64,000 bases of DNA from Acidimicrobiia bacterium. Its GTDB lineage: Bacteria; Actinomycetota; Acidimicrobiia; Acidimicrobiales; JANYDT01. Below the pieces are notes generated by a model. It had not been told where the DNA came from. It did not search any database and saw only the letters and a program-made list of their open reading frames with translations. Location: assembly GCA_043720395.1 (NCBI GenBank), contig JAYSSR010000040.1, positions 45,639 through 109,638 of the forward strand. Direction: 5' to 3'. The translations under genes and the position numbers were made by a program. Below are positions 43,698-64,000 of the stretch, piece after piece (position 1 is the stretch's first letter; every line of letters begins with the position of its first letter).

Positions 43698-43708
43698 GGA
43701 ACTAGCTC

Positions 43709-45016: not shown

Positions 45017-45042
45017 TCCCGCCTGACTTCTCCGGAACCACC

Positions 45043-47667: not shown

Positions 47668-48914
47668 TGGGTATGAACGCGCTGCTTTCGGTCGTTCGCC
47701 TTCAGGAGCAGGGAGACCCGCTTCTCACACCGGGAAACAGGCTGTGGATCGCGCCCTTTCTCATCGTGCTCGTCAAAGTGCTCGTTGCTTTCGTGATCTT
47801 GCTCGTCGGCGTGATGCTGATGGTCTGGTTCGAACGCAAGAAGATCTCGGACATGCAGAACCGAATCGGTCCGAACCGGGCAGGACCGTGGGGACTCCTG
47901 CAGACGCTTGCCGACGGAACGAAGCTCTTCTTCAAGGAAGACCTCTTTCCTGACCGGGCCGACAAGGTTGTGTTCCGGATCGCCCCCTATCTGAGCGCGG
48001 TTCCGGCCTTCCTCACGTTCTGTGTCATCCCGCTGGGTGGTCTTATCCACCCGTTCGGAGAGGCCAAATGGGCCACGTATCTCCAGGTCGCCAGCCCGCC
48101 AATGGGTGTGCTCTTCAGCCTTGCGATTTCGTCGATTGCCGTGTACGGAGTGATGCTCGCCGGTTGGTCTAGTGGTTCTAAATATCCGCTGCTCGGTTCC
48201 ATCCGAGCAAGCGCCCAGATGGTCTCGTACGAGGCCGCGATGGGACTCTCGCTGGCCGCAGTAGTGCTCGCCACGGGGACACTTTCCACCCAGGGGATTG
48301 TGAATGCGCAAGCCGGGTTCAGGTGGAACATCTTCTCGACCGGACTCATCCCTTTTGTGGTCTTCGCGATCGCTGGCACCGCTGAATTGAACCGTCCACC
48401 GTTTGACCTTGTCGAGGCGGAATCCGAACTGGTCGGTGGGTTCCATACCGAGTACTCCTCGGCGCGATTCGCATTCTTCTTCCTCGCCGAATTCATGAAC
48501 ACGATCACGATGTCGGCCTTGATCGTCACGCTCTTCCTCGGTGGCCCACGCATCCCGTGGGACATTCCGTTCTTCTCCGCCGTGTCGCCCGTGTGGTTCG
48601 CCATCAAGCTCTACCTCCTTCTCTACGGCTACGTGCTCCTTCGGGCGACGTTGCCGCGATATCGCTACGACCAGCTCATGGACCTCGGCTGGAAACGTCT
48701 CATACCCGTTTCCCTGCTCTGGCTGCTCGTCATTGCGGCTTTCCGTGCTGGCGAGGGCGCAGAGCGCGTGCGCAACGGTGCGCTCACGCTCGCCGGGGCC
48801 GGGTTGGCGGCGGGTCTACTGTTTGCGGCCATGCGCGTCGGCCGTCAAAGTTCGGAGATCGAACGGGCCAACGCACCCAAACCGACCGGACGCGGCGCGG
48901 AAGGTCGGTTCTAA
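47667..48914 (+). CDS. nuoH: NADH-quinone oxidoreductase subunit H
   Basis: ERKKISDMQNRIGPNRAGPWGLLQTLADG, NRPPFDLVEAESELVGGFHTEYS. Confidence 0.9.
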   Translation: MGMNALLSVVRLQEQGDPLLTPGNRLWIAPFLIVLVKVLVAFVILLVGVMLMVWFERKKISDMQNRIGPNRAGPWGLLQTLADGTKLFFKEDLFPDRADKVVFRIAPYLSAVPAFLTFCVIPLGGLIHPFGEAKWATYLQVASPPMGVLFSLAISSIAVYGVMLAGWSSGSKYPLLGSIRASAQMVSYEAAMGLSLAAVVLATGTLSTQGIVNAQAGFRWNIFSTGLIPFVVFAIAGTAELNRPPFDLVEAESELVGGFHTEYSSARFAFFFLAEFMNTITMSALIVTLFLGGPRIPWDIPFFSAVSPVWFAIKLYLLLYGYVLLRATLPRYRYDQLMDLGWKRLIPVSLLWLLVIAAFRAGEGAERVRNGALTLAGAGLAAGLLFAAMRVGRQSSEIERANAPKPTGRGAEGRF

Positions 48915-48968
48915 GATGATCATTTCGAGTCGAGTGCAGCGAGTCCGTTGCCCCCAGCGGGAGCTGTG

Positions 48969-49655
48969 ATGGGGTATCTCGACGGCTTCCGAATCCCGCT
49001 GCAGGAGGCGTTCCGCAAGGACGTCCGGACCGAGGCATACCCCGACACGATCCGCCCGAAGCCGGAGCGCTTCCACGGACGTCACGTGCTGAATCGCTAC
49101 GAAGACGGCATGGAGAAATGCATCGGCTGCGAGCTCTGCGCGGGGGTCTGTCCAGCGAAGTGCATCTACGTTCGCGGTGCGGACAACGATCCGGAAAACC
49201 CGACGTCACCGGGCGAGCGATTCGGTTTCGTGTACGAGATCAACTATCTCCGCTGTATCCACTGCGACCTCTGTGTCGAGGCGTGCCCGACCGAGGCAAT
49301 CACCGAGTCGAAGATCTTCGAGTTCGCGTTCACCAACCGTCGTGACGCGATCTATACGAAGGCCGAGCTTGTCGTCGGTGATGACGGCCTCCCACAGGTG
49401 CAGCCGTGGGAAGACGACCGCGGTGCGACGATGGGATTGAGCGGTTGGATGCGCGCAACCGCACCCGGCGGCGACGCCGACTTCCGTGGTGAAGAGCTGT
49501 GGTCGGGTGATCTGGTCGCCGGTGTCCGTGCCGCTGAAGCAGGCCCACAGGTCGAGGCCGACGAGCGCGCCGCCCGCCTTCACGTAGCCGAGTCAACCGA
49601 CGCTTCTGGGCACGATGGCCAGAGCAATGGTCACGGTCACGGAGGTCATCACTGA
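48969..49655 (+). CDS. nuoI: NADH-quinone oxidoreductase subunit I (with a His/Gly-rich C-terminal tail)
   Basis: CIGCELCAGVCP and CIHCDLCVEACP. The tail ends ...GHDGQSNGHGHGGHH. Confidence 0.9.
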   Translation: MGYLDGFRIPLQEAFRKDVRTEAYPDTIRPKPERFHGRHVLNRYEDGMEKCIGCELCAGVCPAKCIYVRGADNDPENPTSPGERFGFVYEINYLRCIHCDLCVEACPTEAITESKIFEFAFTNRRDAIYTKAELVVGDDGLPQVQPWEDDRGATMGLSGWMRATAPGGDADFRGEELWSGDLVAGVRAAEAGPQVEADERAARLHVAESTDASGHDGQSNGHGHGGHH

Positions 49656-50209
49656 TGGTCGTCGACACCATCGTCTTCGCCGCGGGCGCGGTGCTCGCAA
49701 TTGCCGGGGCGCTCGGGGTCATTGCCGTTCGCAATCCGGTCCATTCCGCGCTCCTGCTCGTGCTCACCCTCTTCGGCGTCGCAATCCTGTTCGTCGCCCA
49801 GCAGGCCCACTTCCTCGCGGCCGTGCAGGTCATCGTGTACGCAGGCGCGATCGTCGTGCTGTTCCTCTTCGTCATCATGCTCCTGGGCGTCGACCGAACA
49901 ACCGATGATGCTCGCAAGGAGACGTTGCGCGGGCAGCGTCCCGCAGCATTCGCCTTGGGCGCGATTGCGCTGGCCGAGCTCATCCTGCTGACCCGGGTGC
50001 ACACGATCGTTGGCCGACCCTCGCTCTCCGGTGCCGCGAACGGACCCGGCACCAACGTCGAAAAGGTCGGCAAGGCCTTGTTTACTCAGTACCTATTTGC
50101 CTTCGAGATCACGTCGGTTTTGTTGGTGATCGCCGTGGTCGGCGCAGTGCTGCTGTCCAGGAAGCCGGAACCGCTCCCCGTTGAATCGGCAACGGGAGGT
50201 CGGCAGTGA
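49655..50209 (+). CDS. nuoJ: NADH-quinone oxidoreductase subunit J
   Basis: Position in the operon, and a hydrophobic 184-aa product with [22 protein letters not shown]. Confidence 0.85.
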
Positions 50210-50535
50210 TTACCGCGGTTGCGGAACCGGGAGTAGCAGGCGGTGCCTATCTCGCAGTGGCTGCAGTGCTCTTCACGATTGGTGCTGTGGGGCTGTTGAT
50301 CCGCCGCAACGTCCTTGTCATGTTCATGTGTGTGGAGCTGATGCTCAACGCGGTGAACCTCACGTTCGTCACGTTCAGCCGCATGCTGAACGACATCGGC
50401 GGCCAGGTAGCCGTGTTCTTCTCGATGGTGGTCGCAGCGGCCGAAGTAGTCGTCGGCCTCGGCATCATCGTGTCCATCTTCCGGCGCAAGAAGGTCGGCG
50501 CCACCGCCGACAGCGCGAACCTCCTGCGCGGGTGA
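50206..50535 (+). CDS. nuoK: NADH-quinone oxidoreductase subunit K
   Basis: 109 aa with [14 protein letters not shown] and [13 protein letters not shown]. Confidence 0.85.
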
Positions 50536-50540
50536 CCTGA

Positions 50541-52502
50541 ATGCTTCAGTACGTCTGGCTCATCCCCGCGCTTCCGCTCGCTGGATTCGTTCTCCTCTTG
50601 TTCGGCGGCAAGCGGATCGGCGAACCGTACGCCGGGTACATCGCCGCCTCCGCGGTCGGCGCGTCCTTCCTCGTGGCGCTCGGCGTGTTCCTCGACCTGG
50701 TCTCGAAGAGTGAGTCCGAGCGGGCATACACAAAGGTGCTGTGGTCGTGGATGCCGTCGCTCGGCGTCAATGCCGCGCTGCTCGTGAATCCACTTTCGAT
50801 CACGATGGTTCTCTTCGTCACGGGCATCGCAACGCTGATTCATGTGTTTGCGATCGGCTACATGCACGGCGACCCCCTGTTTCCGCGGTTCTTCACCTAC
50901 CTGAACCTCTTTGTGTTCTCGATGCTGATGCTCGTGCTGGGCGACAACTTCGTGGTGATGTTTCTCGGCTGGGAGGGCGTTGGCGCTTGCTCGTACCTGC
51001 TCATCTCGTTCTGGTTCGAGCAGGATTCGGCGGCGTCGGCCGGCAAGAAGGCATTTGTCACGAACCGCATCGGCGACTTCGGTCTCATGGGTGCGATGTT
51101 CCTGATCTTCCAGCACACAGGCTCGCTGGAGTATCACGCCGTGTTCCGTCATATCGAGGAGCAAGGCATCTCGCAGGGCACGGCTACCTGGATCTGCCTT
51201 GCGTTGTTCCTCGGGGCTTGTGGCAAGTCGGCCCAGTTGCCGCTGTATGTGTGGCTTCCCGACGCCATGGAAGGTCCGACCCCTGTGTCGGCCCTGATCC
51301 ACGCGGCGACCATGGTGACTGCGGGCGTGTACCTGATGGTGCGCGTCCATCCGTTCCTCGAAGCGGCCGACCCGAACGTCTCGACGCTGATCGCGTGGGT
51401 CGGTGTGCTGACTGCGTTGTTCGCGGCGACGATTGCCACCGCGCAGGACGACATCAAACGTGTGCTCGCCTATTCCACGATCAGCCAGCTCGGCTATATG
51501 TTCCTAGCTGTCGGTGTCGGCGCGAACGTTGCCGCGATCTTTCACATGGTCACGCACGCGTTCTTCAAGGCGCTGATGTTCCTTGGTGCAGGCTCGGTCA
51601 TCCACGGCATGCATCACGAGCAGGACATGAAGCGGATGGGCAACCTTCGCAAATGGATGCCGGTCACCGCGGGGACGTTCCTGATCGGCTGGCTCGCCAT
51701 TGCCGGCGTGCCCCCGTTCGCTGGTTTCTGGTCGAAGGATGACATCCTTCTCGGTGCCTACAACGAGAACAAGGTGCTCTGGTTCCTGGGGCTCGTGACC
51801 GCACTCCTCACGGCGTACTACATGACCAGGCAGATCCGGCTCGTGTTCTTCGGGAACGAGCGGTTCGTTCACTCCACCAACGCGGGATTCGCACCGGCTC
51901 ATGATGAGCACGACGACCACGCGCACGGTCCAATTACCCCACGCGAGTCGCCGGTGTTCATGGTGCTGCCACTCGTGGTGCTGGCCGCACTCTCACTCGG
52001 TGGCGGGCTCATCAACCTGCCGTTCTCCAAGTCCACCGAGTTCCTGGCGAAATGGCTCGAATCCGCTCACATTCCGGGCACCGAAGTCGCTGCCTTTGTC
52101 GGCCACCAGACCCACGTTTCGGGTGGCACGAAGCTCATCCTCGCGGCCATTGCCGTTGCCTGTGGTCTCGTAGGAATCGCGTTCGGCTGGACGAAGTGGG
52201 GGAACGCCGACCCCGCCCGGAGCGCGTCTCTGGAACTACCAGTGCTCAAGCGTGCCTACGGGGTCGACGCGATCTACTCGAAGTTGATCGTGGCGCCAGG
52301 TCAGGCGCTGTCGAACCTTCTCGCCTTCACGGTCGACAGGAAAGGCATCGACGGCGTGGTGAACGGCGTTGGAACCGGCGTTCGCGGCATCGGCGGTCAA
52401 CTTCGGAAGCTTCAAACGGGCTACGTGCGCAACTACGCGCTCGGGTTGCTTGGTGGCCTTGTCGCTTTGCTTGCGTGGGCCTTCTACCGGGGCGGGATGT
52501 GA
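50541..52502 (+). CDS. nuoL: NADH-quinone oxidoreductase subunit L
   Basis: 653 aa, antiporter-like: GWEGVGACSYLLISFW, GKSAQLPLYVWLPDAMEGPTPVSALIHAATMVTAGVY. Confidence 0.9.
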   Translation: MLQYVWLIPALPLAGFVLLLFGGKRIGEPYAGYIAASAVGASFLVALGVFLDLVSKSESERAYTKVLWSWMPSLGVNAALLVNPLSITMVLFVTGIATLIHVFAIGYMHGDPLFPRFFTYLNLFVFSMLMLVLGDNFVVMFLGWEGVGACSYLLISFWFEQDSAASAGKKAFVTNRIGDFGLMGAMFLIFQHTGSLEYHAVFRHIEEQGISQGTATWICLALFLGACGKSAQLPLYVWLPDAMEGPTPVSALIHAATMVTAGVYLMVRVHPFLEAADPNVSTLIAWVGVLTALFAATIATAQDDIKRVLAYSTISQLGYMFLAVGVGANVAAIFHMVTHAFFKALMFLGAGSVIHGMHHEQDMKRMGNLRKWMPVTAGTFLIGWLAIAGVPPFAGFWSKDDILLGAYNENKVLWFLGLVTALLTAYYMTRQIRLVFFGNERFVHSTNAGFAPAHDEHDDHAHGPITPRESPVFMVLPLVVLAALSLGGGLINLPFSKSTEFLAKWLESAHIPGTEVAAFVGHQTHVSGGTKLILAAIAVACGLVGIAFGWTKWGNADPARSASLELPVLKRAYGVDAIYSKLIVAPGQALSNLLAFTVDRKGIDGVVNGVGTGVRGIGGQLRKLQTGYVRNYALGLLGGLVALLAWAFYRGGM

Positions 52503-54145
52503 CCGTGCAGTCGTTGTTGTTCGCCGCGGAAACTCATTCCGCGCACGTGTCGTTCCCATTGCTAAGCGCGCTGATCATTGTGCCGCTCGTCGGCGCGCTG
52601 CTCACCTCGCTCATCCCGAAGACGCGGAGCGAACTCGTTCCGATCGTCGCCATCGGATCTTCGGCGATCACGCTCGCCCTCTCGGTCTGGCTGATGACCA
52701 ACTTCGACAAGTCCGACGCTGGCTACCAGTTCGCGTCGAAGCACGAATGGATCCGCCAGTTCGGCATGTCGTGGAACCTCGGTGTGGACGGCATCTCGCT
52801 TTGGCTCGTTGTGCTTACGGGTTTGCTGTTCCCTATCGCCATGATCGGACCTGACGAGCGAAAGAACGTCAAGTCATACATGGCCTGGCTATTGCTCCTC
52901 GAAGCCGGGGTCATGGGCGTATTTCTCAGCCTCGACTTGCTGCTGTTCTTTGTGTTCTTCGAGGTTGTGCTCGTGCCGATGTACCTCTTGATCGGCGGCT
53001 GGGGCCACGGCAACAAGACCTACGCAGCCACGAAGTTCTTCATCTACACGATGTTCGGTTCCGCGTTGCTGCTCGTCGCCACGATCACGTTGGCCTTCCT
53101 CGCGAAGGGCAAACTCGGTGTTCTGACCTTCGACGTACGTGAACTCGCCAACGCTGGGCTCGGTATCAACACCTCACGCTGGTTGTTCCTTGCGTTCGCC
53201 CTCGCGTTCGCGATCAAGGTACCGCTGTTCCCGCTTCATACCTGGCTGCCCGACGCGCACACCGAGGCGCCGACCGCTGGCTCCGTCATCCTTGCGGGCG
53301 TCATGTTGAAGATGGGCACCTACGGGCTCATCAGGTTCGGGCTGTTCCTGTTCCCGGAGGCGAGCGATTGGTTCGGTCCTGTGATGCTCACACTCGGCGT
53401 GATCGGGATCATCTACGGTGCCCTCACAGCCGTTGTGCAGAAGGACCTCAAACGTCTCGTCGCGTATTCGTCGGTAGCGCACCTTGGCTTCATCGTGATC
53501 GGTACGTACTCGCTGACCAATCAGGGCATCAGCGGCAGCGTCCTCCAGATGATCAACCACGGCCTTTCGACCGGAGCGTTGTTCCTACTCGTCGGCTGGA
53601 TCTACGAGCGGTGCCACACCCGGGAGATCTCTCAGCTGAAGGGTCTCCAGAAGCTCGCTCCGGTGCTCGCCGGCGCGTTCACGATCGTCATGCTCTCCTC
53701 GATCGGTGTGCCGGGGCTCAACGGTTTCGTGGGTGAGTTCATGATCCTGGTCGGCACGTTCCTCACGGCACGCTGGTGGGCGGTCGTTGCAGCTACGGGG
53801 GTCATCCTCGCCGCGTTGTACCTACTGTGGGCGTATCAACGGACGTTTCATGGCGAGCCGGATGAGGAGAACCGGGCGCATATGCACGATCTCAACCTCC
53901 GCGAACGCCTCGCGATTGCACCGCTCCTCGTGTTGATCGTGTTCATTGGCGTGTATCCGAAACCATTCCTCGATCGTATTGATCCGTCGGTGAAGGCTCT
54001 GATCGCTCACATCGAGGAGAAAACCGGTAAACGCGAGCCTGGTGTTGCGAAGAATCAGGGTGCCGTTGCGGCGTCAAATGAGTCACCAAGTGAGCCAGCA
54101 GACGAGTCATCCGATGATTCATCTCATGGGGAGGAGGCGAAGTGA
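52499..54145 (+). CDS. nuoM: NADH-quinone oxidoreductase subunit M
   Basis: KVPLFPLHTWLPDAHTEAPTAGSVILAGVMLKMGTYG. The GTG start overlaps the nuoL stop. Acidic Ser-rich C-terminal tail. Confidence 0.9.
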   Translation: MTVQSLLFAAETHSAHVSFPLLSALIIVPLVGALLTSLIPKTRSELVPIVAIGSSAITLALSVWLMTNFDKSDAGYQFASKHEWIRQFGMSWNLGVDGISLWLVVLTGLLFPIAMIGPDERKNVKSYMAWLLLLEAGVMGVFLSLDLLLFFVFFEVVLVPMYLLIGGWGHGNKTYAATKFFIYTMFGSALLLVATITLAFLAKGKLGVLTFDVRELANAGLGINTSRWLFLAFALAFAIKVPLFPLHTWLPDAHTEAPTAGSVILAGVMLKMGTYGLIRFGLFLFPEASDWFGPVMLTLGVIGIIYGALTAVVQKDLKRLVAYSSVAHLGFIVIGTYSLTNQGISGSVLQMINHGLSTGALFLLVGWIYERCHTREISQLKGLQKLAPVLAGAFTIVMLSSIGVPGLNGFVGEFMILVGTFLTARWWAVVAATGVILAALYLLWAYQRTFHGEPDEENRAHMHDLNLRERLAIAPLLVLIVFIGVYPKPFLDRIDPSVKALIAHIEEKTGKREPGVAKNQGAVAASNESPSEPADESSDDSSHGEEAK

Positions 54146-55710
54146 GTCTGCTGGCCCGAGTTCTTGGGCAGACCACCGATACGGTCGCCGACGTCGCCGC
54201 CGATGCGGCCGACGGCATCGGCACGATCGTCATGCCGGCCATCCAATGGCGTGCGCTCGCCCCGATCAACGTGATGATCGGCGGCGCGCTTGTGTTGCTC
54301 GTCCTGGCGTCACTCGCACGTCACACGAAGTGGATCGGCCATGTGTATGTGTGGGCCACGTGTGCGATCGCCGGGGCGGCTGGCATCTTCGCTCTCGACT
54401 ACGGATCAACGGCCCGCGACGTCACGAAGCCTGCAAGCGCGGTCTCCGATGCCCTGCGAATCGATGGTTTCGCAACCTTTGTCACCGTTCTCATCTGCGT
54501 GTCCGTCATCCTTGCCACGCTGATCGCGGATGGGTTTCTGAAGCGGGAGGGTCTTCATGGCCCGGAAGTCTTCGTACTGACGCTGCTTTCCGCGTCGGGT
54601 GGCATCGTGATGGCGTCGGCCAACGACCTCATCGTGATGTTCCTGGGGCTCGAAATTCTTTCAATCGCCCTGTATGTACTGGCAGGATCGCACCTCCGGC
54701 GTCAGGAATCACAGGAAGCGGCGCTGAAATACTTCGTGCTGGGTGGCTTCTCCTCGGCGGTCTTCCTGTACGGAAGCGCCCTCATCTACGGAGCGACCGG
54801 GTCCACGAACTTCACCGCTATTGCCACCTACCTCGGCGAGAACGTCTTCTTCCAAAACGGATTGCTGGTTACGGGCATCGTGCTGCTGCTCGTCGGTCTG
54901 GGCTTCAAGATCGCCGCGGTGCCGTTCCACATGTGGACACCCGACGTCTACCAAGGATCGCCGTCGCCGGTCACCGGCTTCATGGCGGCGGCGGCCAAGG
55001 CAGCTGGCTTCGCCGGACTGTTGCGAGTGCTGTTCACCGCGCTCGATTCCCGTCGGCTTGATTGGCAGCCGGTCGTCTGGGTACTCGCGATCATCACGAT
55101 GATCGTCGGCGCGATCCTGGCGGCTACCCAGACCGACGTGAAACGGATCATGGCGTACAGCTCGATCAGCCACGCGGGCTTCATCCTCATCGGGCTGCAG
55201 GCGGCCAACGCTGCGGGCCGCTCCGGCGCGCTGTTCTACCTGTTCGCGTACACCTTCATCGTGCTGGGCAGCTTCGCCGTGATCTCGGTCGTTGGCGGCC
55301 GCGGTGACCGGGCACATTCTCTGGACGACTACAAGGGCCTCGGCAAGCGTGCACCCGTGCTCGCGGTGTTGTTCACGCTGTTCCTGCTCGCACAGGCCGG
55401 CATCCCGACCACGAGCGGTTTCATTGCAAAGTTCGGAGTGATCCGTGCTGCGGCTGATGCGCATTCGTACGCGATTGCGATCATCGCGATGTTCGTCTCG
55501 GTCATCGGCGCGTTCGCGTACCTGCGGGTGGTCGTGGCGATGTTCATGTCGGACTCGGATACCGACTCGGACACGGCCTCTGATGCCGGTGCACTTACGG
55601 TCCCGATCGGCACAAAGGTCGCGCTTGCCGTCGCCGTTGCCGCGACGCTGTTCTTCGGCATCGCTCCGCAGCTCCTCGTGAACTTCGCCGACAAGGCCCT
55701 CCTCCGGTAG
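54142..55710 (+). CDS. nuoN: NADH-quinone oxidoreductase subunit N
   Basis: GFKIAAVPFHMWTPDVYQGSPSPVTGFMAAAAK. Confidence 0.9.
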   Translation: MSLLARVLGQTTDTVADVAADAADGIGTIVMPAIQWRALAPINVMIGGALVLLVLASLARHTKWIGHVYVWATCAIAGAAGIFALDYGSTARDVTKPASAVSDALRIDGFATFVTVLICVSVILATLIADGFLKREGLHGPEVFVLTLLSASGGIVMASANDLIVMFLGLEILSIALYVLAGSHLRRQESQEAALKYFVLGGFSSAVFLYGSALIYGATGSTNFTAIATYLGENVFFQNGLLVTGIVLLLVGLGFKIAAVPFHMWTPDVYQGSPSPVTGFMAAAAKAAGFAGLLRVLFTALDSRRLDWQPVVWVLAIITMIVGAILAATQTDVKRIMAYSSISHAGFILIGLQAANAAGRSGALFYLFAYTFIVLGSFAVISVVGGRGDRAHSLDDYKGLGKRAPVLAVLFTLFLLAQAGIPTTSGFIAKFGVIRAAADAHSYAIAIIAMFVSVIGAFAYLRVVVAMFMSDSDTDSDTASDAGALTVPIGTKVALAVAVAATLFFGIAPQLLVNFADKALLR

Positions 55711-55712
55711 GT

Positions 55713-56087
55713 TTGATCTCCGTGTCGCAGTTCCTCCGCTCCTATCTGACCATCGCCTTCCTGGCCGGGGCCGCGTTTCTTCTGGTCGGCGGCACGCTCG
55801 CACTCTCGCGACTGGTACGCCCGAAGCGTCCGAGCGCTGAGAAATTGGTGGCGTACGAGTCCGGCGTCGATCCGGTCGGCACCGGGTGGTCGCAGTCTCA
55901 GATTCGCTATTACATCTTTGCCCTCCTGTTCGTGATGTTCGACGTGGAAGCGGTCTTCCTCTTCCCGTGGGCGCTGCGACTCGAGTACTTCGGTGTGTTC
56001 GGTCTCGTGGAGATGGGTGCCTTCGTTGGCATCCTCCTGCTCGGTCTGCTCTACGCGTGGCGCAAGGGCGTGCTGCGCTGGGTCTGA
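55713..56087 (+). CDS. nuoA: NADH-quinone oxidoreductase subunit A, second divergent copy (nuoA2)
   Basis: [10 protein letters not shown]...[25 protein letters not shown]; 124 aa, starting 2 nt after the nuoN stop. Confidence 0.85.
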
Positions 56088-56133
56088 CCCCGACGCATCA
56101 CACGAAATATCGCCGGAATCTGAGGAACCAGTC

Positions 56134-56649
56134 ATGGGCATTGTCGAAAAGGGTTTGCTGGGAAAGAAGGGCGCAAAACCGCTCACCTGGCTGTTGAACT
56201 ACAGCCGCAAGTACTCCCTCTGGTGTTACCAGTGGGGTCTCGCGTGCTGCGCGATCGAAATGGGGGCTGCGTTCGCATCGCCTCGCTACGACGTGATGCG
56301 CCTCGGGGTCATCCCGTTCCCGGCATCGCCGCGCCAAGCCGACCTCATCGTTGTGTCCGGCACCGTGACCGACAAGATGGCACCGGCGATCAAGCGCCTC
56401 TACGAACAGATGCCCGAACCGAAGTACGTGATCTCCATGGGGAGCTGTGCGAACTGTGGCGGTCCCTACTGGGATTCGTATTCGGTCATGAAGGGTGTCG
56501 ACCAGATCGTGCCCGTCGATGTGTACGTGCCGGGCTGTCCTCCGCGTCCGGAAGCCCTTCTCGAAGGGATCGTGCTCCTCCAAGAGCGCATCCAGAATGA
56601 GGACATGGCCACGAAGTGGCGTGGCGATCCCATTGTTGTCGGGGAGTAA
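56134..56649 (+). CDS. nuoB: NADH-quinone oxidoreductase subunit B, second divergent copy (nuoB2)
   Basis: [68 protein letters not shown]. All four N2-cluster Cys positions are retained. Confidence 0.85.
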
Positions 56650-56777
56650 CCCGGAATAGTCCCGAGTAGCCCGGTTCGGGGACCGATGCGGGTAGCCGGT
56701 CGGTAAGGGCGCGTCGCCCTCGCCCGCGATGCGTCCTGAGCGAATGGCGGGATGACTGTTCGGTACGGTCGGCGGCC

Positions 56778-59700
56778 GTGGAGAAGTCGAAAGCGCCGAG
56801 CGATGCCGACGACGGTATCCATGTAGCGGTCGACGTCGGCAGCTTGCGGCGAACGGCGGTAGTTCGTCCGGGTCGCGATGTGACCTGGGCCGACGTACTT
56901 TCCGCGCTTCGACCGGGTGCGGTGGACGACCTGTCGGTGGACGGCGTCCCCGTCCGTTGCGGCTGGCCGGTGGTCGCGCTGCAGCGTGGCTCGTTGCTCA
57001 CCCTGGGCGTGGCGAAGACACGACTGCTACCCAAGTGCCCGGATTCGGTGCCGCTCGTGGTGCGCGTGCTCACGGGTCCGCTCGCTGGATCGACCATCGG
57101 CCTCCCCGCGGGCACGACCGTATTCGGACGGGAACAGTTGGGCGATCCGACCGTGTCCGTTCGCCACGCCGCATTCCACGTCATCTTCGCACCGGACGGT
57201 GAACCCGTGGTGCACGTCGCCGATCTCGCTTCTACGAATGGCACGACCGTCGAAGGTCTCCCAATCGGACAGGGATGGCATCCGATCGAAGACAACGCCT
57301 CGATGGTGGTCGCATTCGGCCGATGTCTCCTACGTGCGGAAGCCGCGACCGAGGTAACCGCCGCACCACGTCTCCTCGGTCGCGACGGCCGGATACCGGT
57401 GCAGCGATCGCCACGTCTCAACATTGTTGAACGTGCCCAACCGATCGGCGTACCCGCGGCGCAAAAAGCACCCGGGTTGTCGCGCCTGCGCCTCTCGACC
57501 ATGTTCCTCCCGCTGATTCTGGCCGCGGTGATGGTGAAGGTCACTCATCAGCTGACGTTCGCCCTGTTCGCGTTGCTGTCGCCGCTCACCATGTTGGGCA
57601 ACCACCTTGAGGATCGTGGCAAGCGTCGGAGCGTTGGCCGACGCGGTGCGGCGCAGAGCCGTGCAGAGCTGGCGGCCTTCGAGGCCGAAACACGAGACAG
57701 TCGAGCCGTCGAACGGCGTCGCCGCTTCGATCAGTTCCCTGACCTCGCGCGAATCGCCGAGACGTGCGCTATCGCGGACGCTGCATTGTGGGCACGACAA
57801 CCTGACCACTCCGACTCACGAGCCGTCGTGCTCGGCTATGCATCGCAGCGTTGGCAGCCGCCGCTTCGACCGGAACCGACGGGGTCCGAGCCGGATCACA
57901 TCATCGAGGCCATCGAACGGACGAAAGACCTGGGCGAAGTGCCGCTCGTAACCGAGATCGTCGCGGGTCGTTGCATCGGGATCCACGGCGAACGTGAAGC
58001 GGTTCGAGCGATGGCCAGATCGCTCCTGATCCAGGCGGCGGCGCACCGGAGCCCCGCCGATCTCGCCATCTCGGTTGCACCAACCGCGGCGCGAGAGAGG
58101 TGGGCGTGGACGCATTGGCTTCCACACCGCGGAGTTGGCGACGGCGAGCCTGCGGGGGACGACAGAAGCGAGACGACCGATGTACGGGATCAGCTTTTCC
58201 TGCTTGACCTTCTTGACGAACCCAGGCCGGTTCCTCACAGGTTCGATGCCGCCAGATCTCGCTCGGTGATTGCCCTCGCGCTCACGCCCGAACGGCTTCC
58301 GGCGGGTTGTGGGGTAGTCATCCACACCAACGGACAGCTGGCGGAGGTCATCGATCTCACGCATGGGGTGCGGTTCTCCGAGACGGTCGCGTTGGCCGCA
58401 TCGGCTGAGTTCGCCGATGCGGTAGCGAGGTCGCTCGCCCCCTATGCAGATGTCGATCTCGTGGACGACGCCGCGATGATTCCGATTGCGGTGCCGCTCG
58501 TCGGAATGCTCGGTGTTGAAGGCGTTACTCGCGACAACTCGTCGTCCGCTGCAATGCCCGTCCAAGGGCGATGGGAAGCTGCGCGCGGCCAGACCGGACT
58601 CGCTGTCCCCGTCGGTCGTGATGAGAACGGGCTCGTCGTTGTCGATCTGGTCGCCGACGGACCGCACGCCCTCGTGGCCGGAACAACGGGATCCGGGAAG
58701 AGTGAGCTTCTACGCAGCTGGCTGGTCGCTCTGGCCGCAACCTATTCACCGGATGAACTCAACTTCGTGCTGATCGATTACAAGGGAGGAAGTGCGTTCG
58801 CCGCATGCGCAAGCCTTCCCCACACGGCCGGGCTGGTGACGGATCTCGATGGTCACCTCGCGGCGCGGGCGTTGCGGTGTCTCGATGCGGAGATCGTGCG
58901 CCGTGAGCGGATTCTCCGCGATGCCGAAGTGATGGATCTCCCGGCCCTGGTCGTTGCCGGTGGGCACCTCCCCCGGTTGGTCGTCGTGATCGACGAATTC
59001 GCGACGCTTGCCGCCGAGGTCCCGGGATTCGTTGATGCTCTCGTCGGCGTCGCGCAGCGGGGCCGGAGCCTCGGGTTGCACCTCGTGCTGGCGACGCAGC
59101 GTCCATCGGGGGCGGTCAGCGAGAACATTCGCGCGAACACCAACATGCGGATCTCGTTGCGTGTCCAGTCAAGCGCCGATTCGGTGGACGTGATCGGCGA
59201 CCCGGCTGCAGCGCGTCTTCCTCGTCGAGTGCCCGGCCGCGCCCTGATCCGACTCGGGCCGGGAGAGCTGACGACGTTTCAAGCCGCGTACTGCGGCGGT
59301 TCGGCAACCGCAGCGGTGGCGCTTCCGGCGGCGTCCTGGACGGACGAAGATCATCTGTGCACCGATAATCAGCGTGCTGATGATATGCGTGCTGATGATA
59401 TGCGTGCTGATGATATGCGCGCTGAGTTCACCAATGGCGCGACTGCCGCGATGCCGAGAGACGACGACCTCACCAGTCTGGTAAGCGCGATCTGCGCCGC
59501 CGCCATCGACGCGGGGACAACCCCGCCGCATCGACCATGGCCGGACCCGTTGCCTCCCGCGATCGCGCTCCCGCCGACACGGTCCGAGCCTGCGGAGACT
59601 TTGGGCCTTTCGGTCGAGATCGGTGTTGCGGATCTTCCCGACCAGCAGCGATGGGAATCGCTCATCTGGCAACTCGATCGGGGACCGCTTCTCGTGACGG

Positions 59701-61067
59701 GACCTGTCGGCAGTGGCGTCACCTCGACCCTGACGGCGGCGGCGTGTTCAGCAGCGCGAGACCACTCGCCCGATCACCTCCAGCTCCACGTGATCGACTT
59801 CGGTGTCGGAGCGTTGCTGCCCTTACGCGGCCTTCCCCATGCCGGCGACATTCTCGGCCTGGCTGATCGGGAACGACTTCGACGCTGCGCTCGCTGGCTC
59901 GACGGCGAGCTTTCGGTTCGTCGTGCGGCACTGGTCACGGCTGAGCTGTCACGTTGGTCCGACCTTGTCGGGCCGGACACACCGCCGCGAGTCCTGATCG
60001 TGATCGATCAGTATCAAGCACTGCGCTCGGAACTCGACTCACCCGACGGGCATGCGACCTTGGAGACGTTGCACCGCGTCATCGCAGACGGAACCGCGGT
60101 GGGCTTGCACGTCGCCGTGGGCGTTGATCGTCTCCAGGCCGTACCCGCAGCGGTCCTCGGCGCGTTCGTGCAGCGCCTCGTGCTTGGTGCGCGGGAACGC
60201 TTCGAGGTGGCCATGGCCGGCGCGAAGGTCGATGAACTCCCGCCGCCAATTCCGGGACGTGGGATCGACATCCCCGAGGCTCGGGAGGTTCAGATATTCC
60301 AGGTCGAAGGGTTGGTCGAAGTGGTCGCTCACCTGCATGAGACGTGGGGGGCACCGTCCGTCGCTGCCCATCGATCACCCGTGCTTCCCACTGCGGTGGC
60401 CCGTGCCGACCTGGGCATGAGCGGTGTGGCTTTGCCCGTGGGTCTCGGAGATCGCGACGTGGGCACTGTCGGCTTCGATCTCGTGAGTGGCGAAGGTCTG
60501 ATGGTGGTCGGCCCGGGACGTTCCGGCCGCAGTTCGACGCTCGCGCTCCTGGCCAGACAGGTTCGGTCGGCGGACCCAGAACGGGCTCTGATGTTCGTCA
60601 CACCACGGACTTCGACGCCGATGGAGCGGGCGCGAGAAATGCTCGGCGATGCTGTGGCAGTGGTGGCGTCGGATGCAGCCGCCGTTGCAGATGCAGCGCG
60701 TGCGGTTCTCGATCTCGGTCACCGCGTCGCGCTCTTCATCGACGACGCCGAGCACCTGGACGACCCGACGCGGGCTTTGGAGCGACTCCTCCTCGCACGT
60801 CCTCCGGGCCTGTGGGTCTGCGCTGCCGGTCGAGTCGATGCGCTGCGCAGCGCCTACGGACATTGGACCATGCCGATCAGACGGACTCGAACGGGTATTG
60901 CGTTACGCCCGAATCTCGACACGGACGGAGACGTGTTTGCCACCCCGCTCCCACGTCGCGGCGGGCCGTTCCCACCCGGCCGCGGGTGCCTCATCCGCGA
61001 TGGCGACGTCGAGGTTGTGCAGCTCGCACTGTGGAACGAGGTCGCACGAGAGTTAGGGTCGCTCTGA
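56778..61067 (+). CDS. FHA-domain / triple FtsK-SpoIIIE ATPase membrane protein (EssC/EccC-like architecture)
   Basis: 1429 aa. FHA-like GTTVFGRE...VSVRHAAFHV...LASTNGTTVEG, two TM helices around res 245-285, and a canonical P-loop GTTGSGKSE (58680-58703) with VVIDEF and LVLATQRPSG. Two further P-loop-like sites are degenerate: GPVGSGVTS (59700-59726) and GPGRSGRSS (60510-60536). Confidence 0.8.
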   Translation: MEKSKAPSDADDGIHVAVDVGSLRRTAVVRPGRDVTWADVLSALRPGAVDDLSVDGVPVRCGWPVVALQRGSLLTLGVAKTRLLPKCPDSVPLVVRVLTGPLAGSTIGLPAGTTVFGREQLGDPTVSVRHAAFHVIFAPDGEPVVHVADLASTNGTTVEGLPIGQGWHPIEDNASMVVAFGRCLLRAEAATEVTAAPRLLGRDGRIPVQRSPRLNIVERAQPIGVPAAQKAPGLSRLRLSTMFLPLILAAVMVKVTHQLTFALFALLSPLTMLGNHLEDRGKRRSVGRRGAAQSRAELAAFEAETRDSRAVERRRRFDQFPDLARIAETCAIADAALWARQPDHSDSRAVVLGYASQRWQPPLRPEPTGSEPDHIIEAIERTKDLGEVPLVTEIVAGRCIGIHGEREAVRAMARSLLIQAAAHRSPADLAISVAPTAARERWAWTHWLPHRGVGDGEPAGDDRSETTDVRDQLFLLDLLDEPRPVPHRFDAARSRSVIALALTPERLPAGCGVVIHTNGQLAEVIDLTHGVRFSETVALAASAEFADAVARSLAPYADVDLVDDAAMIPIAVPLVGMLGVEGVTRDNSSSAAMPVQGRWEAARGQTGLAVPVGRDENGLVVVDLVADGPHALVAGTTGSGKSELLRSWLVALAATYSPDELNFVLIDYKGGSAFAACASLPHTAGLVTDLDGHLAARALRCLDAEIVRRERILRDAEVMDLPALVVAGGHLPRLVVVIDEFATLAAEVPGFVDALVGVAQRGRSLGLHLVLATQRPSGAVSENIRANTNMRISLRVQSSADSVDVIGDPAAARLPRRVPGRALIRLGPGELTTFQAAYCGGSATAAVALPAASWTDEDHLCTDNQRADDMRADDMRADDMRAEFTNGATAAMPRDDDLTSLVSAICAAAIDAGTTPPHRPWPDPLPPAIALPPTRSEPAETLGLSVEIGVADLPDQQRWESLIWQLDRGPLLVTGPVGSGVTSTLTAAACSAARDHSPDHLQLHVIDFGVGALLPLRGLPHAGDILGLADRERLRRCARWLDGELSVRRAALVTAELSRWSDLVGPDTPPRVLIVIDQYQALRSELDSPDGHATLETLHRVIADGTAVGLHVAVGVDRLQAVPAAVLGAFVQRLVLGARERFEVAMAGAKVDELPPPIPGRGIDIPEAREVQIFQVEGLVEVVAHLHETWGAPSVAAHRSPVLPTAVARADLGMSGVALPVGLGDRDVGTVGFDLVSGEGLMVVGPGRSGRSSTLALLARQVRSADPERALMFVTPRTSTPMERAREMLGDAVAVVASDAAAVADAARAVLDLGHRVALFIDDAEHLDDPTRALERLLLARPPGLWVCAAGRVDALRSAYGHWTMPIRRTRTGIALRPNLDTDGDVFATPLPRRGGPFPPGRGCLIRDGDVEVVQLALWNEVARELGSL
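59373..59426 (+). repeat. In-frame 15-bp tandem repeat (about 3.5 copies) inside the FtsK-like gene
   Basis: CGTGCTGATGATATG x3 (59373-59417), then the degenerate CGCGCTGAG. It encodes RADDM-RADDM-RADDM-RAE. Confidence 0.9.
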
Positions 61068-61084
61068 AACGAGGAAGGGACGAC

Positions 61085-61972
61085 ATGGGCAGGTTGGATG
61101 GACGAGTAGCGATCGTGACCGGCGCGAGCCGAGGGCTGGGCCGAGCGATGGCACTGGGTCTCGCGGCCGAAGGAGCGTCCGTTGCCGTGGTCGCACGGAC
61201 GGAACAGGTGTGGGACGAGCGACTGCCCGGAACGATTGGTCAGACCGTCACCGATATCGAGGCGGCGGGCGGTCGAGCGGTTGCGATTCGCGCCGATCTC
61301 CTCCAGCCGGAAGATCACGTCCGATTGGTCAACGAGGCGCGAGCCGCCCTCGGCCCGATCACGATCCTTGTCAACAACGCGGCGTTCACGGCACCAGGGC
61401 GTCCGCCGAAACCCGGAGCGACTCCAGTAGCGGCGCGCAAAAAGGTCGCCGCCGAAACCGGTCCGGCAACCGCGAAGGCAGAGTGGCCGAACTTCGCCAC
61501 GACGCCGCTCGGAGCGTTTCGTCGCCACTTCGAGATCGGCGTCTTTGCGGTTTACGAGCTGATGCAGCTCGTGGTTCCGGACATGGCAGCGGCGGGTGGT
61601 GGAGCGATCGTGAACGTGACCTCGGGAGCGTCGAGGATGCCAGGCGACGGTCCGTATCCTGACCGGTCCAGCGGGATGCTTCCGGGCTACGGCGGATCGA
61701 AGGCGGCGCTCGAACACCTCACCCAGTGTGCCGCGTTCGACCTCGCGGGGATGAACATTGCCGTGAACTCCCTGTCTCCGTCCAAGGCGATCCTGACGCC
61801 AGGCGTTGCCTTCTACGCACGGGAGTTCGATGATCTCGGTTCGGAGACCGATTTCGCCGAGGCCGCCGTGCGCCTGTGTCTGGTCGACCCGACCACTGTC
61901 ACCGGCCGCACGATCGGGCACCTCGACGTCCTCGACGGAACCTACCGCGCGTACGGTCATAACCCCAGGTGA
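61085..61972 (+). CDS. Short-chain dehydrogenase/reductase (SDR) with a low-complexity insertion
   Basis: TGASRGLG, NNAA and YGGSKAA (YxxxK). An insertion of about 35 aa, GRPPKPGATPVAARKKVAAETGPATAKAEWPNFATT, follows NNAA. The ATG at 61085 is internal to the 542-aa ORF. Confidence 0.8.
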   Translation: MGRLDGRVAIVTGASRGLGRAMALGLAAEGASVAVVARTEQVWDERLPGTIGQTVTDIEAAGGRAVAIRADLLQPEDHVRLVNEARAALGPITILVNNAAFTAPGRPPKPGATPVAARKKVAAETGPATAKAEWPNFATTPLGAFRRHFEIGVFAVYELMQLVVPDMAAAGGGAIVNVTSGASRMPGDGPYPDRSSGMLPGYGGSKAALEHLTQCAAFDLAGMNIAVNSLSPSKAILTPGVAFYAREFDDLGSETDFAEAAVRLCLVDPTTVTGRTIGHLDVLDGTYRAYGHNPR

Positions 61973-61992
61973 GGTACCCGTAGCTTGGTGCG

Positions 61993-63066
61993 ATGGTCGT
62001 GCGCCCCAACACCCCGCTGGTTCAGGCGCTCAAGATGGTCGCCCCCGGTTCGACGCTGCGCGACGGTCTCGACCGCATCCTCCAGGCCAAGATGGGTGCG
62101 CTCATCGTGGTCGGCGATGGACCGGACGTCTTGGCGGTCTGCTCGGGCGGGTTTCTTCTCGACGCCGAATACTCGCCGCAGCGTTTGAGCGAGCTGGCCA
62201 AGATGGACGGCGCGATCATCCTCGCGTCCGACGCAAGCCGAATCGCTCGGGCGAACGTGCACCTGCTGCCCGATCCGGGCGTACCGACCACGGAGACCGG
62301 GACGCGTCATCGCACCGCAGAACGCGTCGCACGTTCGATCGACGTGCCGGTGATCTCGGTGTCGGAAGAGATGTCGATCATCGCCGTTTACCGGCAGGCC
62401 GACAAGGTCCAGCTCCAAGGCATCGGCGAGGCGCTCGATCGTGCCGGTCAGGCGATTCAGACGCTGGAGCGGTATCGGTCGCGACTCGACCAGGTCCTCG
62501 CACTGCTCTCGCTCCACGAGATCGACGGCACCGTGACCGTACGTGACGTCGCCGTTGCTTACCAGCGCTTGGAAATGGTGCACCGGGTGAGCGAGGAACT
62601 CGGCGGCCAGCTGGTGTCACTGGGTGACGAAGGCCGTCACGTCGAACTGCAACTCGACGAATTGCTCGCCGGGCTCGACCGCGAACGGACCCTCCTCTGT
62701 CGCGACTATGCGATCGACCCGGACGTTTCTGCTCGGTCGCTCGCGAAGCTCGACTCCCACGAGTTGCTCGATCTTGGCCAGGTCGGTCGTGTGCTCGGTC
62801 TCGCCGACCCATCCGGCACTGGCTCGGGCGCAGCGGGTTCGAGGTTGGTGCCGAAGGGCTACCGCTTGCTCTCGCGAGTCCCACGCCTCTCCGATCCGGT
62901 GATCGCCCACGTTGCGACGCACTTCGCCGGGATACCCGATCTGCTGATGGCTACCGTCGCGGCGCTGACTCGCGTGGACGGCGTCGGCGAGGTTCGAGCC
63001 AGGGCAATCCGCGACGGTCTCAGCAGGGCGTCGGAAACGATCCTCAGCGAGGCTCGCGGCCGCTAA
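61993..63066 (+). CDS. disA: DNA integrity scanning protein DisA (diadenylate cyclase)
   Basis: DAC-domain GALIVVG, MDGAIIL and TGTRHRTAERV, with a C-terminal HhH-like region (VDGVGEVRARAIRDGL). Confidence 0.9.
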   Translation: MVVRPNTPLVQALKMVAPGSTLRDGLDRILQAKMGALIVVGDGPDVLAVCSGGFLLDAEYSPQRLSELAKMDGAIILASDASRIARANVHLLPDPGVPTTETGTRHRTAERVARSIDVPVISVSEEMSIIAVYRQADKVQLQGIGEALDRAGQAIQTLERYRSRLDQVLALLSLHEIDGTVTVRDVAVAYQRLEMVHRVSEELGGQLVSLGDEGRHVELQLDELLAGLDRERTLLCRDYAIDPDVSARSLAKLDSHELLDLGQVGRVLGLADPSGTGSGAAGSRLVPKGYRLLSRVPRLSDPVIAHVATHFAGIPDLLMATVAALTRVDGVGEVRARAIRDGLSRASETILSEARGR

Positions 63067-63072
63067 AACGTG

Positions 63073-63732
63073 TCAGGTCGAGCGGTTGGCGAGACGCTTG
63101 CGGTCAACGATGCGGTAGGTACGATCGCGCTGCTCAAGCCAGCCGAGGCGGATGAACGCAGCGATCGCCTTGTTGACGCGCTCACGAGAGGCACCGATCA
63201 TCGAGGCCAATTCTTCCTGGGTGATCGGAAGGCTGAACTCGTCGGAGGTGCCCGCGATCTCCAGGAGACGTTTCGCGGTGCGTCCGGTCACGTCGAGGAA
63301 GACCGAGTCGGCGATCGCTTCGTTGGCGGAACGGAGGCGATCCATGAGCAGCGTGATGACGCTCCACAGGGCCTTCGCGTGCGTCTCGAAATGCGCGCGA
63401 ACGGGTTCGAACGGAACCCGGACGACCTCGCTCGACTCCAGCGCGCGGGCTCCAGCGGAGCGTCCCTTGCCGTCAAACATCGCCATCTCGCCGAACAGAT
63501 CGCCCGGGTCCATGAGGTCGAGCACGGACTCGCGGCCGTCGACCGAGCGGTTCCCGATTGCAATGCGCCCGGACACCGTGATGTACAGCGCGTCGGCCGG
63601 ATCCGTCTCGGCGAACACCATGTCGCCACGCTGGTACGACTGACGCGTCGCTCTAGAGGCGACCTCCACGAGCGCTTCGTCGGTAAAGCCGGAGAAGAAT
63701 GGGATGCTTCGAAGGAACTCCGCGGTGACCAC
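63073..63732 (-). CDS. crp: Crp/Fnr-family cyclic-nucleotide-binding transcriptional regulator
   Basis: cNMP domain DLFGEMAMFDGKGRSAGARALE and HTH TQEELASMIGASRERVNKAIAAF. The GTG start at 63732 is inferred. Confidence 0.85.
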   Translation of the reverse strand: MVTAEFLRSIPFFSGFTDEALVEVASRATRQSYQRGDMVFAETDPADALYITVSGRIAIGNRSVDGRESVLDLMDPGDLFGEMAMFDGKGRSAGARALESSEVVRVPFEPVRAHFETHAKALWSVITLLMDRLRSANEAIADSVFLDVTGRTAKRLLEIAGTSDEFSLPITQEELASMIGASRERVNKAIAAFIRLGWLEQRDRTYRIVDRKRLANRST

Positions 63733-63903
63733 GGCGGTGAGCCTATGCGCCTGTGACGTCCGTCGCTCGTCAGGGTCTCGGGCTGCCCTGGAACGGTTGC
63801 AAACAAAAGAAACCCGACGAAAACCGAGCCCGGCCAGGCGTTTGCTACAATCGTAGGTCGCAATTTCCGATTCAGTTTGGGTCGGTCGCTTCTGAGGAGC
63901 CTC

Positions 63904-64000
63904 ATGCCGTTCGACGTCGGTGACAAGGTCGTGTACCCCCATCATGGGGCCGCGATCATCGAGAAGCGTGAGATGAAGAAGTTCAACGACGAGGAGAAGG
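63904..64000 (+). CDS. carD: CarD-family RNA polymerase-binding transcriptional regulator (5' end only; runs off the window)
   Basis: Manual translation MPFDVGDKVVYPHHGAAIIEKREMKKFNDEEK matches the CarD N-terminal signature (VGD.VVYPHHGAA). GAGGAG lies 5 nt upstream and TACAAT lies at 63846-63851. Confidence 0.8.
   Translation, partial: MPFDVGDKVVYPHHGAAIIEKREMKKFNDEEK

Follow-up and report, generated by a model that had tools for sequence, protein, structure and literature searches.

The minimal core of a working type VII secretion system (T7SS) remains debated, and it is unclear why nearly every subtype needs a ubiquitin-like protein. In YukBA, the activity of the first FtsK-like module (D1) alone is essential; in Geobacillus EssC, the Walker B Asp of the second module (D2) is followed by Asn, and this module is a tight binder of ATP; and in staphylococcal EssC, the third module (D3) is without ATP-binding motifs (PMC4925161). 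The ubiquitin-like protein YukD is clasped between the FHA domain and the domain of unknown function (DUF) of YukB, and the ubiquitin-like (Ubl) domain of EccD binds the same DUF surface (PMC12637312). Here we analyzed a gene for an ATPase of this family, which lies at 56778..61067 on the plus strand of a 64-kb stretch of DNA from an Acidimicrobiia bacterium (contig JAYSSR010000040.1, positions 45,639 to 109,638; referred to as the window and numbered from its first letter). With a probability of roughly 0.7, it encodes an intact, membrane-anchored T7SS ATPase of a distinct actinobacterial lineage, composed of Ubl, FHA, two transmembrane (TM) helices, DUF, D1, D2, and D3, and its WXG100 gene is located elsewhere as a result of a rearrangement. 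An earlier note on this DNA, made from the letters and their open reading frames (ORFs), had taken the protein for an orphan that was repurposed or works as a stand-alone translocase or scaffold.

Domain architecture of the ATPase

The gene is complete, starts with GTG, and encodes 1429 amino acids (aa). It is the longest ORF of its region, and its GC content at codon positions 1, 2, and 3 (0.75, 0.52, and 0.71) is of the coding type. The GTG at 56778 must be used, since the beta-grasp fold described below already starts at residue 14; a later start codon was rejected for the same reason. Among PDB sequences the closest was EccC of T. curvata (4NH0; phmmer, E 1e-70), and EccC, EccC5, and YukB were the closest solved relatives. 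The NCBIfam profiles for EssC, EccCa, and EccCb gave 448, 318, and 268 bits (447.7, 318.5, and 267.9), the first over residues 496-1275 and the three together over residues 496-1300. Pfam detected FHA at residues 117-171 (E 2.5e-5), FtsK_SpoIIIE at 599-777 and over a second stretch, and AAA_22 at 1241-1338. The protein has the layout of a T7SS coupling ATPase, namely, a pair of TM helices, then a DUF, then a tandem of three FtsK-like P-loop modules. The earlier note was right in placing the FHA domain, both TM helices, and all three FtsK-like modules in a single ORF (Pfam, NCBIfam, and hydropathy) and in assigning the protein to the EssC/EccC family (profile and phmmer matches). It erred in equating this layout with that of Bacillota EssC, as the protein carries a Ubl domain and a single FHA domain, not two FHA domains.

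Residues 14-77 (56817..57008, plus strand) are predicted to adopt a ubiquitin-like (beta-grasp) fold. In the AlphaFold2 (AF2) model of residues 1-232, which had a mean predicted local distance difference test score (pLDDT) of 82, these residues form a beta-beta-alpha-beta-beta-beta unit with block pLDDT values of 79-91; residues 1-88 modeled alone gave a pLDDT of 80. When the latter model was submitted to Foldseek, the top matches turned out to be nearly all ubiquitin-like or other beta-grasp folds and included a plant Ubl, MoaD, ubiquitin, SUMO, ISG15, and an ESX-3 translocon chain. Among PDB sequences, a profile built on the domain matched ubiquitin variants (E 5.5e-4), SAMP2, and, with E 0.024, the EccD1 Ubl; in a search of 1.84 billion representatives, it matched polyubiquitin-like repeat proteins and the N-termini of ~1400-aa proteins. 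The Pfam families YukD, ubiquitin, or SAMP2 were matched by 7 of 18 homologue N-termini, provided that none of these matched two families. The question raised by the earlier note, whether residues 1-85 form a ubiquitin-like fold, is therefore answered in the affirmative by the AF2 and Foldseek results for residues 14-77. The Ubl hidden Markov model (HMM) also matched the N-termini of most members of the actinobacterial clade to which the protein belongs (see below), with zero matches among the Bacillota-type EssC, Eggerthellaceae (T7SSd-like), and EccC sequences tested.

The Ubl domain is followed by a single FHA domain, residues 93-189 (57054..57344, plus strand), which was supported by Pfam, by an AF2 pLDDT above 90, and by Foldseek matches of its model to the FHA domains of GarA, OdhI, and MDC1 (E ~1e-6). 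Read off the alignment, the phosphothreonine-binding residues G117-R118, S127-x-x-H130, and N154-G155 are all retained. The phosphothreonine-dependent regulation proposed in the earlier note is plausible, given this motif and the Ser/Thr kinases that recur beside homologues. The motif is likewise retained in the Actinoplanes-type members. A Poriferisocius-type subclade (L002, L003, L088, and P0004-P0017) has an FHA domain without the motif Ser and Asn, reading GLRPQH and GDNE instead of VSxRH and STNG, and Pfam detects no FHA there.

A predicted two-helix TM hairpin at about residues 240-278 (57495..57611, plus strand; sequence STMFLPLILAAVMVKVTHQLTFALFALLSPLTMLG) was identified by hydropathy: the Kyte-Doolittle score in a 19-residue window exceeded 1.6 at positions 237-249, and the single hydrophobic stretch is long enough for two helices. 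The earlier note had described what follows as a linker of about 330 aa. This stretch holds a region homologous to the EccC DUF by phmmer, a stalk plus a degenerate ATPase-like domain at 57645..58547 (plus strand; boundaries approximate). Residues 402-451 aligned with residues 48-98 of 4NH0 and residues 328-471 with residues 139-292 of EccC5 (7B9F). In this region W442, W444, W447, L448, P449, and H450 are invariant in the clade.

Three ATPase modules, of which D1 is canonical

Module D1 (58572..59303, plus strand; FtsK_SpoIIIE, E 1e-45) has the Walker A motif GTTGSGKSE at 58680-58706 (residues 635-643) and the Walker B motif VVVIDEFA. Its residues K641, D739, and E740 were invariant in the 28 homologues aligned, and, judged by this complete Walker A/B set, D1 should be catalytically competent. 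The ATPase-like module D2 (59604..60287, plus strand), which aligned to D2 of EccC5 (phmmer), has GPVGSGVTS at 59700-59726 (residues 975-983) and IDQ as its Walker B motif, and so lacks both the Walker A Lys and the catalytic Glu of Walker B. In the ATPase-like module D3 (60405..61037, plus strand; AAA_22 at residues 1241-1338), the Walker A motif GPGRSGRSS at 60510-60536 (residues 1245-1253) has Arg in place of Lys, and the Walker B motif reads FIDDAE. The three P-loops agree letter for letter with those given in the earlier note, which took the two degenerate ones as a sign of repurposing.

This interpretation was not upheld by the comparison with homologues, as the same states are the consensus of the clade. 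In the 28-sequence alignment the consensus is GxPGSGTT with IDN or IDG for D2 and GPARSGRS with IDDAE for D3; in the nearest clade it is GxxGSG[T/V]T for D2 and GPxRSGRS for D3. A motif table of 84 fetched loci plus the window showed GxxRSGR[ST] in both D2 and D3 of most actinobacterial homologues, and the phmmer alignments showed Lys in all three Walker A motifs of canonical EccC. Non-canonical D2 and D3 sequences are the conserved norm of the clade. Of the 173 positions with at least 90% conservation among the other members, the window protein retains 166 (96%); those members themselves retain 85-100%. The clade-wide P-loop states and the 96% retention therefore count against both decay and a change peculiar to this copy.

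The linker between D1 and D2 contains a perfect, in-frame tandem repeat of 15 nucleotides (nt) in three copies (ADDMR three times; 59376..59420, plus strand), which was read from the sequence. Its unit, GCTGATGATATGCGT, is AT-rich for this genome. Because the copies are identical, a recent expansion is suggested.

Homologues normally adjoin a WXG100 gene

The nearest homologues, 35-39% identical, were found in Actinoplanes, in Candidatus Poriferisocius and other Acidimicrobiia, and in Solirubrobacteraceae. A neighbor-joining (NJ) tree placed the clade apart from the groups of Bacillota-type EssC, Eggerthellaceae (T7SSd-like), and EccC, with the window protein as a long branch sister to a clade with the D2 P-loop GSGTT.

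In the nearest clade, a WXG100 gene was present nearby in all nine loci with readable flanks and directly adjacent in six of them. It is 5-66 bp upstream in five Acidimicrobiia-type loci (L002, L003, L004, L088, and L089), whose remaining neighbors are housekeeping genes (thrC, hom, lysA, argS), 1 bp downstream in L007, 673 bp off in L005, and 5-6 kb off in two Actinoplanes loci. Across the wider clade, 29 of 42 full-flank loci had a WXG100 match within 10 kb and 21 had one within 500 bp. The recurrent neighbors here were Ser/Thr kinases, Tad pilus genes, transglutaminase, MoxR, and RHS toxins, some of the last with WXG100/T7SS_signal N-termini, and no EccB, EccD, EccE, EssA, or EssB family emerged from clustering of the clade neighbors. 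The rest of the genes around homologues are for the most part housekeeping genes. Clade members, then, normally adjoin a WXG100 gene and often little else. The homologues usually stand beside a secretion gene and the window copy stands at a synteny break (see below), a combination that goes largely against the orphan reading of the earlier note.

Several of these neighborhoods have features of their own. In L016 (Kineosporia), a gene at 15400-20337 beside the ATPase gene encodes a 1645-aa RHS/YD-repeat toxin with an N-terminal WXG100/T7SS_signal domain and DUF6531; similar RHS toxins occur in L006, L050, and L001 and are candidate substrates of the clade. Tad genes (T2SSE ATPase and T2SSF) lie a few kilobases upstream of the Ubl-FHA ATPase gene in L015, L021, L023, L029, L044, L052, L059, and L073, which include Streptomyces, Nonomuraea, and Thermomonospora loci, an arrangement reminiscent of the linkage to Tad reported in Bacillota for T7SSg and T7SSh. 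In L008, L009, L013, L020, L022, L024, L030, L031, L072, and L077, which include Microbacterium, Cellulosimicrobium, Pseudarthrobacter, and uncultured lineages, the ATPase gene is preceded by varied sets of genes for MoxR, a transglutaminase-like membrane protein, a Ser/Thr kinase, and a ~1500-aa protein. These sets resemble the MoxR-vWA-kinase-FHA threat-sensing modules ("Esr") recently linked to Esx (PMC13622651).

The window copy has no WXG100 neighbor and lies at a synteny break

The absence of an adjoining WXG100 gene is the sole peculiarity of the window copy. Pfam scans, which took in nearly all the other called genes of the window, detected no WXG100 protein or EsxA, no EccB, EccD, or EccE, no EssA, EssB, EsaA, or EsaB, and no mycosin, Ser/Thr kinase, or PP2C. 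An HMM built from 63 WXG100 neighbors of homologues matched nothing in any of the six translated frames of the window, with a threshold as loose as E<=10, tblastn with three neighbor WXG100 proteins gave chance matches alone (E>=0.18), and a W-x-G regular expression applied to small ORFs with a coding-like GC profile yielded no helical-hairpin candidate in the window. The statement of the earlier note that no other T7SS gene is visible in the window was thus confirmed: WXG100 linkage is missing for this ATPase within the 64 kb, though it is found for the clade. Three ORFs of WXG100 size (~90-101 aa), at 20548-20850, 5292-5597, and 37153-37425, had no Pfam match and no helical-hairpin W-x-G signature; the first of them ends in a hydrophobic helix at its C-terminus.

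The immediate neighbors are, as the earlier note had it, nuoB2 and a short-chain dehydrogenase/reductase (SDR) gene. The upstream nuoB2 (55993..56649, plus strand; PF01058, E 1.3e-30) ends 128 bp before the ATPase gene, and thus there is no room for an upstream WXG100 gene. The SDR oxidoreductase gene (61085..61972, plus strand; PF00106, E 4.4e-35) begins 17 bp past the ATPase stop codon; in the ORF list it was concealed within a longer ORF, 60344-61972. A minus-strand gene at 60854-61960 was rejected in its favor, being an Arg-rich antisense translation without a Pfam match. A further 20 bp past the SDR gene lies disA (61993..63066, plus strand; Pfam DAC and DisA-linker), and beyond it a crp-like gene on the minus strand. 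The ATPase and SDR genes are probably co-transcribed. A promoter and terminator scan of 55500-64000 returned one promoter-like site (0.8 expected) and six terminator-like sites (4.2 expected), none of them between nuoB2, the ATPase gene, the SDR gene, and disA, so that the scan carried no information.

The three homologous disA loci (L085-L087) have the order radA-disA-(crp)-carD-ispDF, with a small glyoxalase-family gene separating radA from disA in one of them; the named DisA homologues are those of Acidimicrobiales (58-60% identity). In the window the order is nuoB2-ATPase gene-SDR-disA-crp. Here disA and crp (61993-63945) keep the usual actinobacterial order, and radA is absent from the window. 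Since radA is replaced by nuoB2-ATPase-SDR, the ATPase gene is located at a synteny break. The local context of the gene is derived, and its lone setting is best read as a local rearrangement. The codon usage of the gene is unremarkable, ranking 14th of 50 genes, counted from the closest, by distance to the window pool.

The rest of the window has housekeeping content: an Lhr helicase, a heme-biosynthesis cluster, proC, cytochrome bc-type genes, a full nuoA-N operon, and the extra nuoA2 and nuoB2. The gene nuoD was identified from homologue names, and nuoK and nuoL were assigned solely by operon position. The second nuoA/nuoB pair (55713-56649) directly follows nuoN of the complete operon (40189-55710) and consists of divergent paralogues, nuoA2 being 35% identical to nuoA1 and nuoB2 55% identical to nuoB1. 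The GC content is 0.60-0.62 over the cytochrome/nuo region (34000-46000 and 48000-56000) versus 0.65-0.68 elsewhere, and the AT skew is about -0.2 across nuoH-N, as expected of membrane-protein genes.

Weighing the explanations

Taken together, the gene most likely encodes a working secretion ATPase that was parted from its WXG100 gene by a rearrangement. A number of points weigh against this conclusion. The NCBIfam scores are under the curated cut-offs for EssC (TIGR03928, 778.4 bits), EccCa (TIGR03924, 509 bits), and EccCb (TIGR03925, 346 bits) alike, and the protein, a long branch, shares no more than 39% identity with any of 5.8 billion protein clusters. For the Ubl domain, the AF2 alignments were shallow (18 sequences), the N-terminus of the window protein itself had no Pfam match, to YukD, ubiquitin, and SAMP2 among others, and homology to YukD/EsaB in particular is weak: YukD (PF08817) was matched in 4 of the 18 homologue N-termini (best E, 0.0025), and four Firmicute EsaB sequences gave no significant hhalign match to the Ubl profile (E 0.029, probability 1.7%). 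The tree is an NJ tree from one MAFFT alignment, and the gene calls in the fetched loci were heuristic. No gene for a WXG100 or LXG-type protein, a kinase, or a phosphatase was found across 56 kb upstream and 3 kb downstream, and no experimental work on any clade member was found in the literature. Finally, the GC content at third codon positions (GC3) of the gene is 0.707, and only one of 50 genes has a lower value (mean, 0.771; standard deviation, 0.034), which could reflect low expression, relaxed selection, or foreign origin.

The explanation that survives best beside this one, unlikely as we consider it, is that of a true orphan with a new job: the genome would contain no WXG100 partner, and the protein would act as a stand-alone translocase or as a membrane scaffold regulated by phosphothreonine binding, for cargo other than WXG100 proteins. 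Such a role would fit the missing partner gene in the window (tblastn, WXG100 HMM, and Pfam), the 13 of 42 full-flank clade loci that likewise have no detectable WXG100 gene within 10 kb, the intact FHA motif, and the tight packing with SDR and disA (gaps of 17 and 20 bp), which suggests co-transcription with non-secretion genes. However, every evaluable member of the nearest clade (nine of nine) has a WXG100 gene nearby, and the features cited for repurposing are clade-wide and not particular to this copy. Moreover, T7SS substrates are often encoded apart from the ATPase gene, candidate substrates outside the Esx cluster having been described (PMC13622651), and the setting resembles a rearrangement, not a conserved new operon. 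The repurposed or stand-alone reading in the earlier note is upheld only in part, as the sequence oddities are shared by the whole clade, whose members are usually linked to WXG100 genes.

The same rearrangement, or a horizontal acquisition without the partner, might instead have left a useless, stranded relic whose decay is yet to come, a reading which we regard as distinctly unlikely. The low GC3, the position at a synteny break, the perfect 15-nt repeat in the linker, and the long branch, with no close orthologue in the databases despite same-species NuoD and DisA fragments at 98% identity, all speak for a relic. Against this, the 4.3-kb ORF is free of stop codons and frameshifts, the codon usage stands 14th of 50 genes in closeness to the window pool, and 96% of the clade-conserved residues are kept, including every D1 catalytic residue and the FHA motif. 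It is highly improbable that the protein is a DNA translocase of the FtsK or TraB kind, serving to segregate chromosomes or to transfer DNA by conjugation, or that it belongs to an anti-phage system of the FtsK/HerA type. In favor of such a role are weak profile matches to FtsK (75 bits versus a cut-off of 1566), TraB (28 bits), and HerA, matches of D1 to mad8 and SspH of PADLOC, and the location next to disA, whose product scans DNA for integrity. These matches, however, are confined to the generic P-loop core of D1, Pfam detected no FtsK gamma domain, and the disA neighborhood of the gene is not shared by the homologous loci that were examined. The three tandem modules, the EccC-type DUF, and far stronger matches to EssC and EccC place the protein in the T7SS branch, and WXG100 genes and WXG-RHS toxins are linked to its clade. 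As PADLOC gave solely such generic FtsK-domain matches on D1, an anti-phage system was rejected.

Proposed mechanism and significance

For a secretion ATPase parted from its WXG100 gene, the following mechanism can be proposed by analogy with EccC and YukB. The protein would oligomerize in the membrane, with D1 hydrolyzing ATP and thereby driving export, and D2 and D3 would serve as non-hydrolyzing regulatory modules that bind nucleotide or substrate. The fused Ubl domain may dock between FHA and DUF, a place taken in Bacillus by free YukD and matched in mycobacteria by the docking of the EccD Ubl on the EccC DUF, and the FHA domain may couple assembly or activity to Ser/Thr-kinase signaling. 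The WXG100 substrate or co-factor would be encoded elsewhere in the genome following the rearrangement.

The novelty lies at the level of the clade, which is apparently an unnamed T7SS variant with a fused Ubl domain and a two-gene core. We put forward tentatively, at somewhat below even odds, the broader claim that it constitutes a widespread unnamed actinobacterial T7SS subtype, occurring in Acidimicrobiia, Actinoplanes, Streptomyces, Geodermatophilus, and others, in which a Ubl-FHA-motor polypeptide with one hydrolytic ATP site and one adjacent WXG100 gene would be the whole conserved core, the window copy being an ATPase that persists without a linked WXG100 gene. If true, this two-gene subtype would be a "minimal" type VII system. 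A clade with Ubl, FHA, and ATPase in one chain, whose sole constant neighbor is a WXG100 gene, offers a natural experiment on the T7SS core and on the need for a ubiquitin-like component. The covalent joining of Ubl and FHA has a non-covalent counterpart in the YukD-FHA-DUF clamp that cryo-electron microscopy revealed in Bacillus, the intact phosphothreonine pocket of the FHA domain predicts control by a kinase, and the conserved Lys-less D2 and Arg-type D3 argue for two dedicated sensors, not motors, among the three modules. For annotation, it follows that degenerate P-loops and a missing neighborhood are no ground for calling members of this Ubl-FHA-ATPase family pseudogenes.

Comparison with known systems

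The FtsK/SpoIIIE DNA translocases have a single motor and a gamma domain; the window protein has three modules, scores 75 bits against 1566, and has no Ftsk_gamma match. Pairs made up of a solo WXG gene and one for a YueA-like ATPase have been reported as mobile versions of the T7SS in Proteobacteria, Planctomycetes, and other phyla (Zhang et al. 2012, PMC3482391, Table 1 footnote). Like the clade described here, they are two-gene modules with a triple FtsK/HerA protein in which one domain is active; unlike it, they have the middle domain active (the first in the window protein), belong to other phyla, and have no reported Ubl-FHA N-terminus. No account of a Ubl-FHA-ATPase fusion was found in the literature searched, the coverage of which was incomplete.

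EccC of the actinobacterial T7SSa/ESX systems (TIGR03924/03925; PDB 4NH0, 7B9F, and 7NP7) comes from the same phylum and shares homologous DUF, D1, D2, and D3 domains. In the assembled ESX system, the Ubl domain that contacts the EccC DUF is supplied by EccD, whereas the window protein brings its own. EccC has no FHA domain, no N-terminal Ubl domain, and Lys in its three Walker A motifs, and the window protein differs on each count; it also falls under both EccC cut-offs (318.5 versus 509 and 267.9 versus 346 bits). The genes encoded together with EccC, namely, those for EccB, EccD, EccE, MycP, and an EsxA/B pair, are present neither in the window nor among the recurrent neighbors of the clade.

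With EssC/YukB of the Bacillota T7SSb (TIGR03928; PDB 9QKS, 5FV0, and 1WV3), the window protein shares a cytoplasmic FHA in the N-terminal part, the pair of TM helices, the DUF, and the three FtsK-like modules, of which D1 is the canonical motor in both. The Walker B Asp of D2 is followed by a non-acidic residue, Gln in the window protein and Asn in Geobacillus EssC (PMC4925161), and D3 is degenerate in some T7SSb species as well. A WXG100 partner and the need for a ubiquitin-like component (PMC12637312) further liken T7SSb to the clade of the window protein. The differences concern both the protein and its setting. T7SSb EssC has two tandem FHA domains without phosphothreonine-binding residues (PMC4925161), whereas the window protein has one, with the motif intact, placed after a fused Ubl domain; the T7SSb Ubl (YukD/EsaB) is a separate protein. 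D2 of EssC retains the Walker A Lys that D2 of the window protein has lost. None of the T7SSb neighbors EssA, EssB, EsaA, and EsaB is encoded beside the window gene, and the protein scores 448 bits against the 778-bit equivalog cut-off for EssC and takes a separate branch in the NJ tree.

T7SSd, known from Olsenella and Bifidobacterium (Garrett, Higginson and Palmer 2024, PMC11217815), is the described idea that comes nearest to the window protein. None of its partners TsdA, TsdD kinase, TsdH, and TsdI is found in the window, and it has been reported to work without any ubiquitin-like component (PMC11217815), whereas the window protein has a fused one. The putative T7SSd loci of Eggerthellaceae (L075 and L076) group with Bacillota-type EssC, and not with the clade of the window protein, in the NJ tree and have no Ubl HMM match. 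TsdC is actinobacterial and has, as does the window protein, an N-terminal FHA domain with a conserved phosphothreonine motif, and T7SSd has few core components, with a Ser/Thr kinase often encoded close by (PMC11217815).

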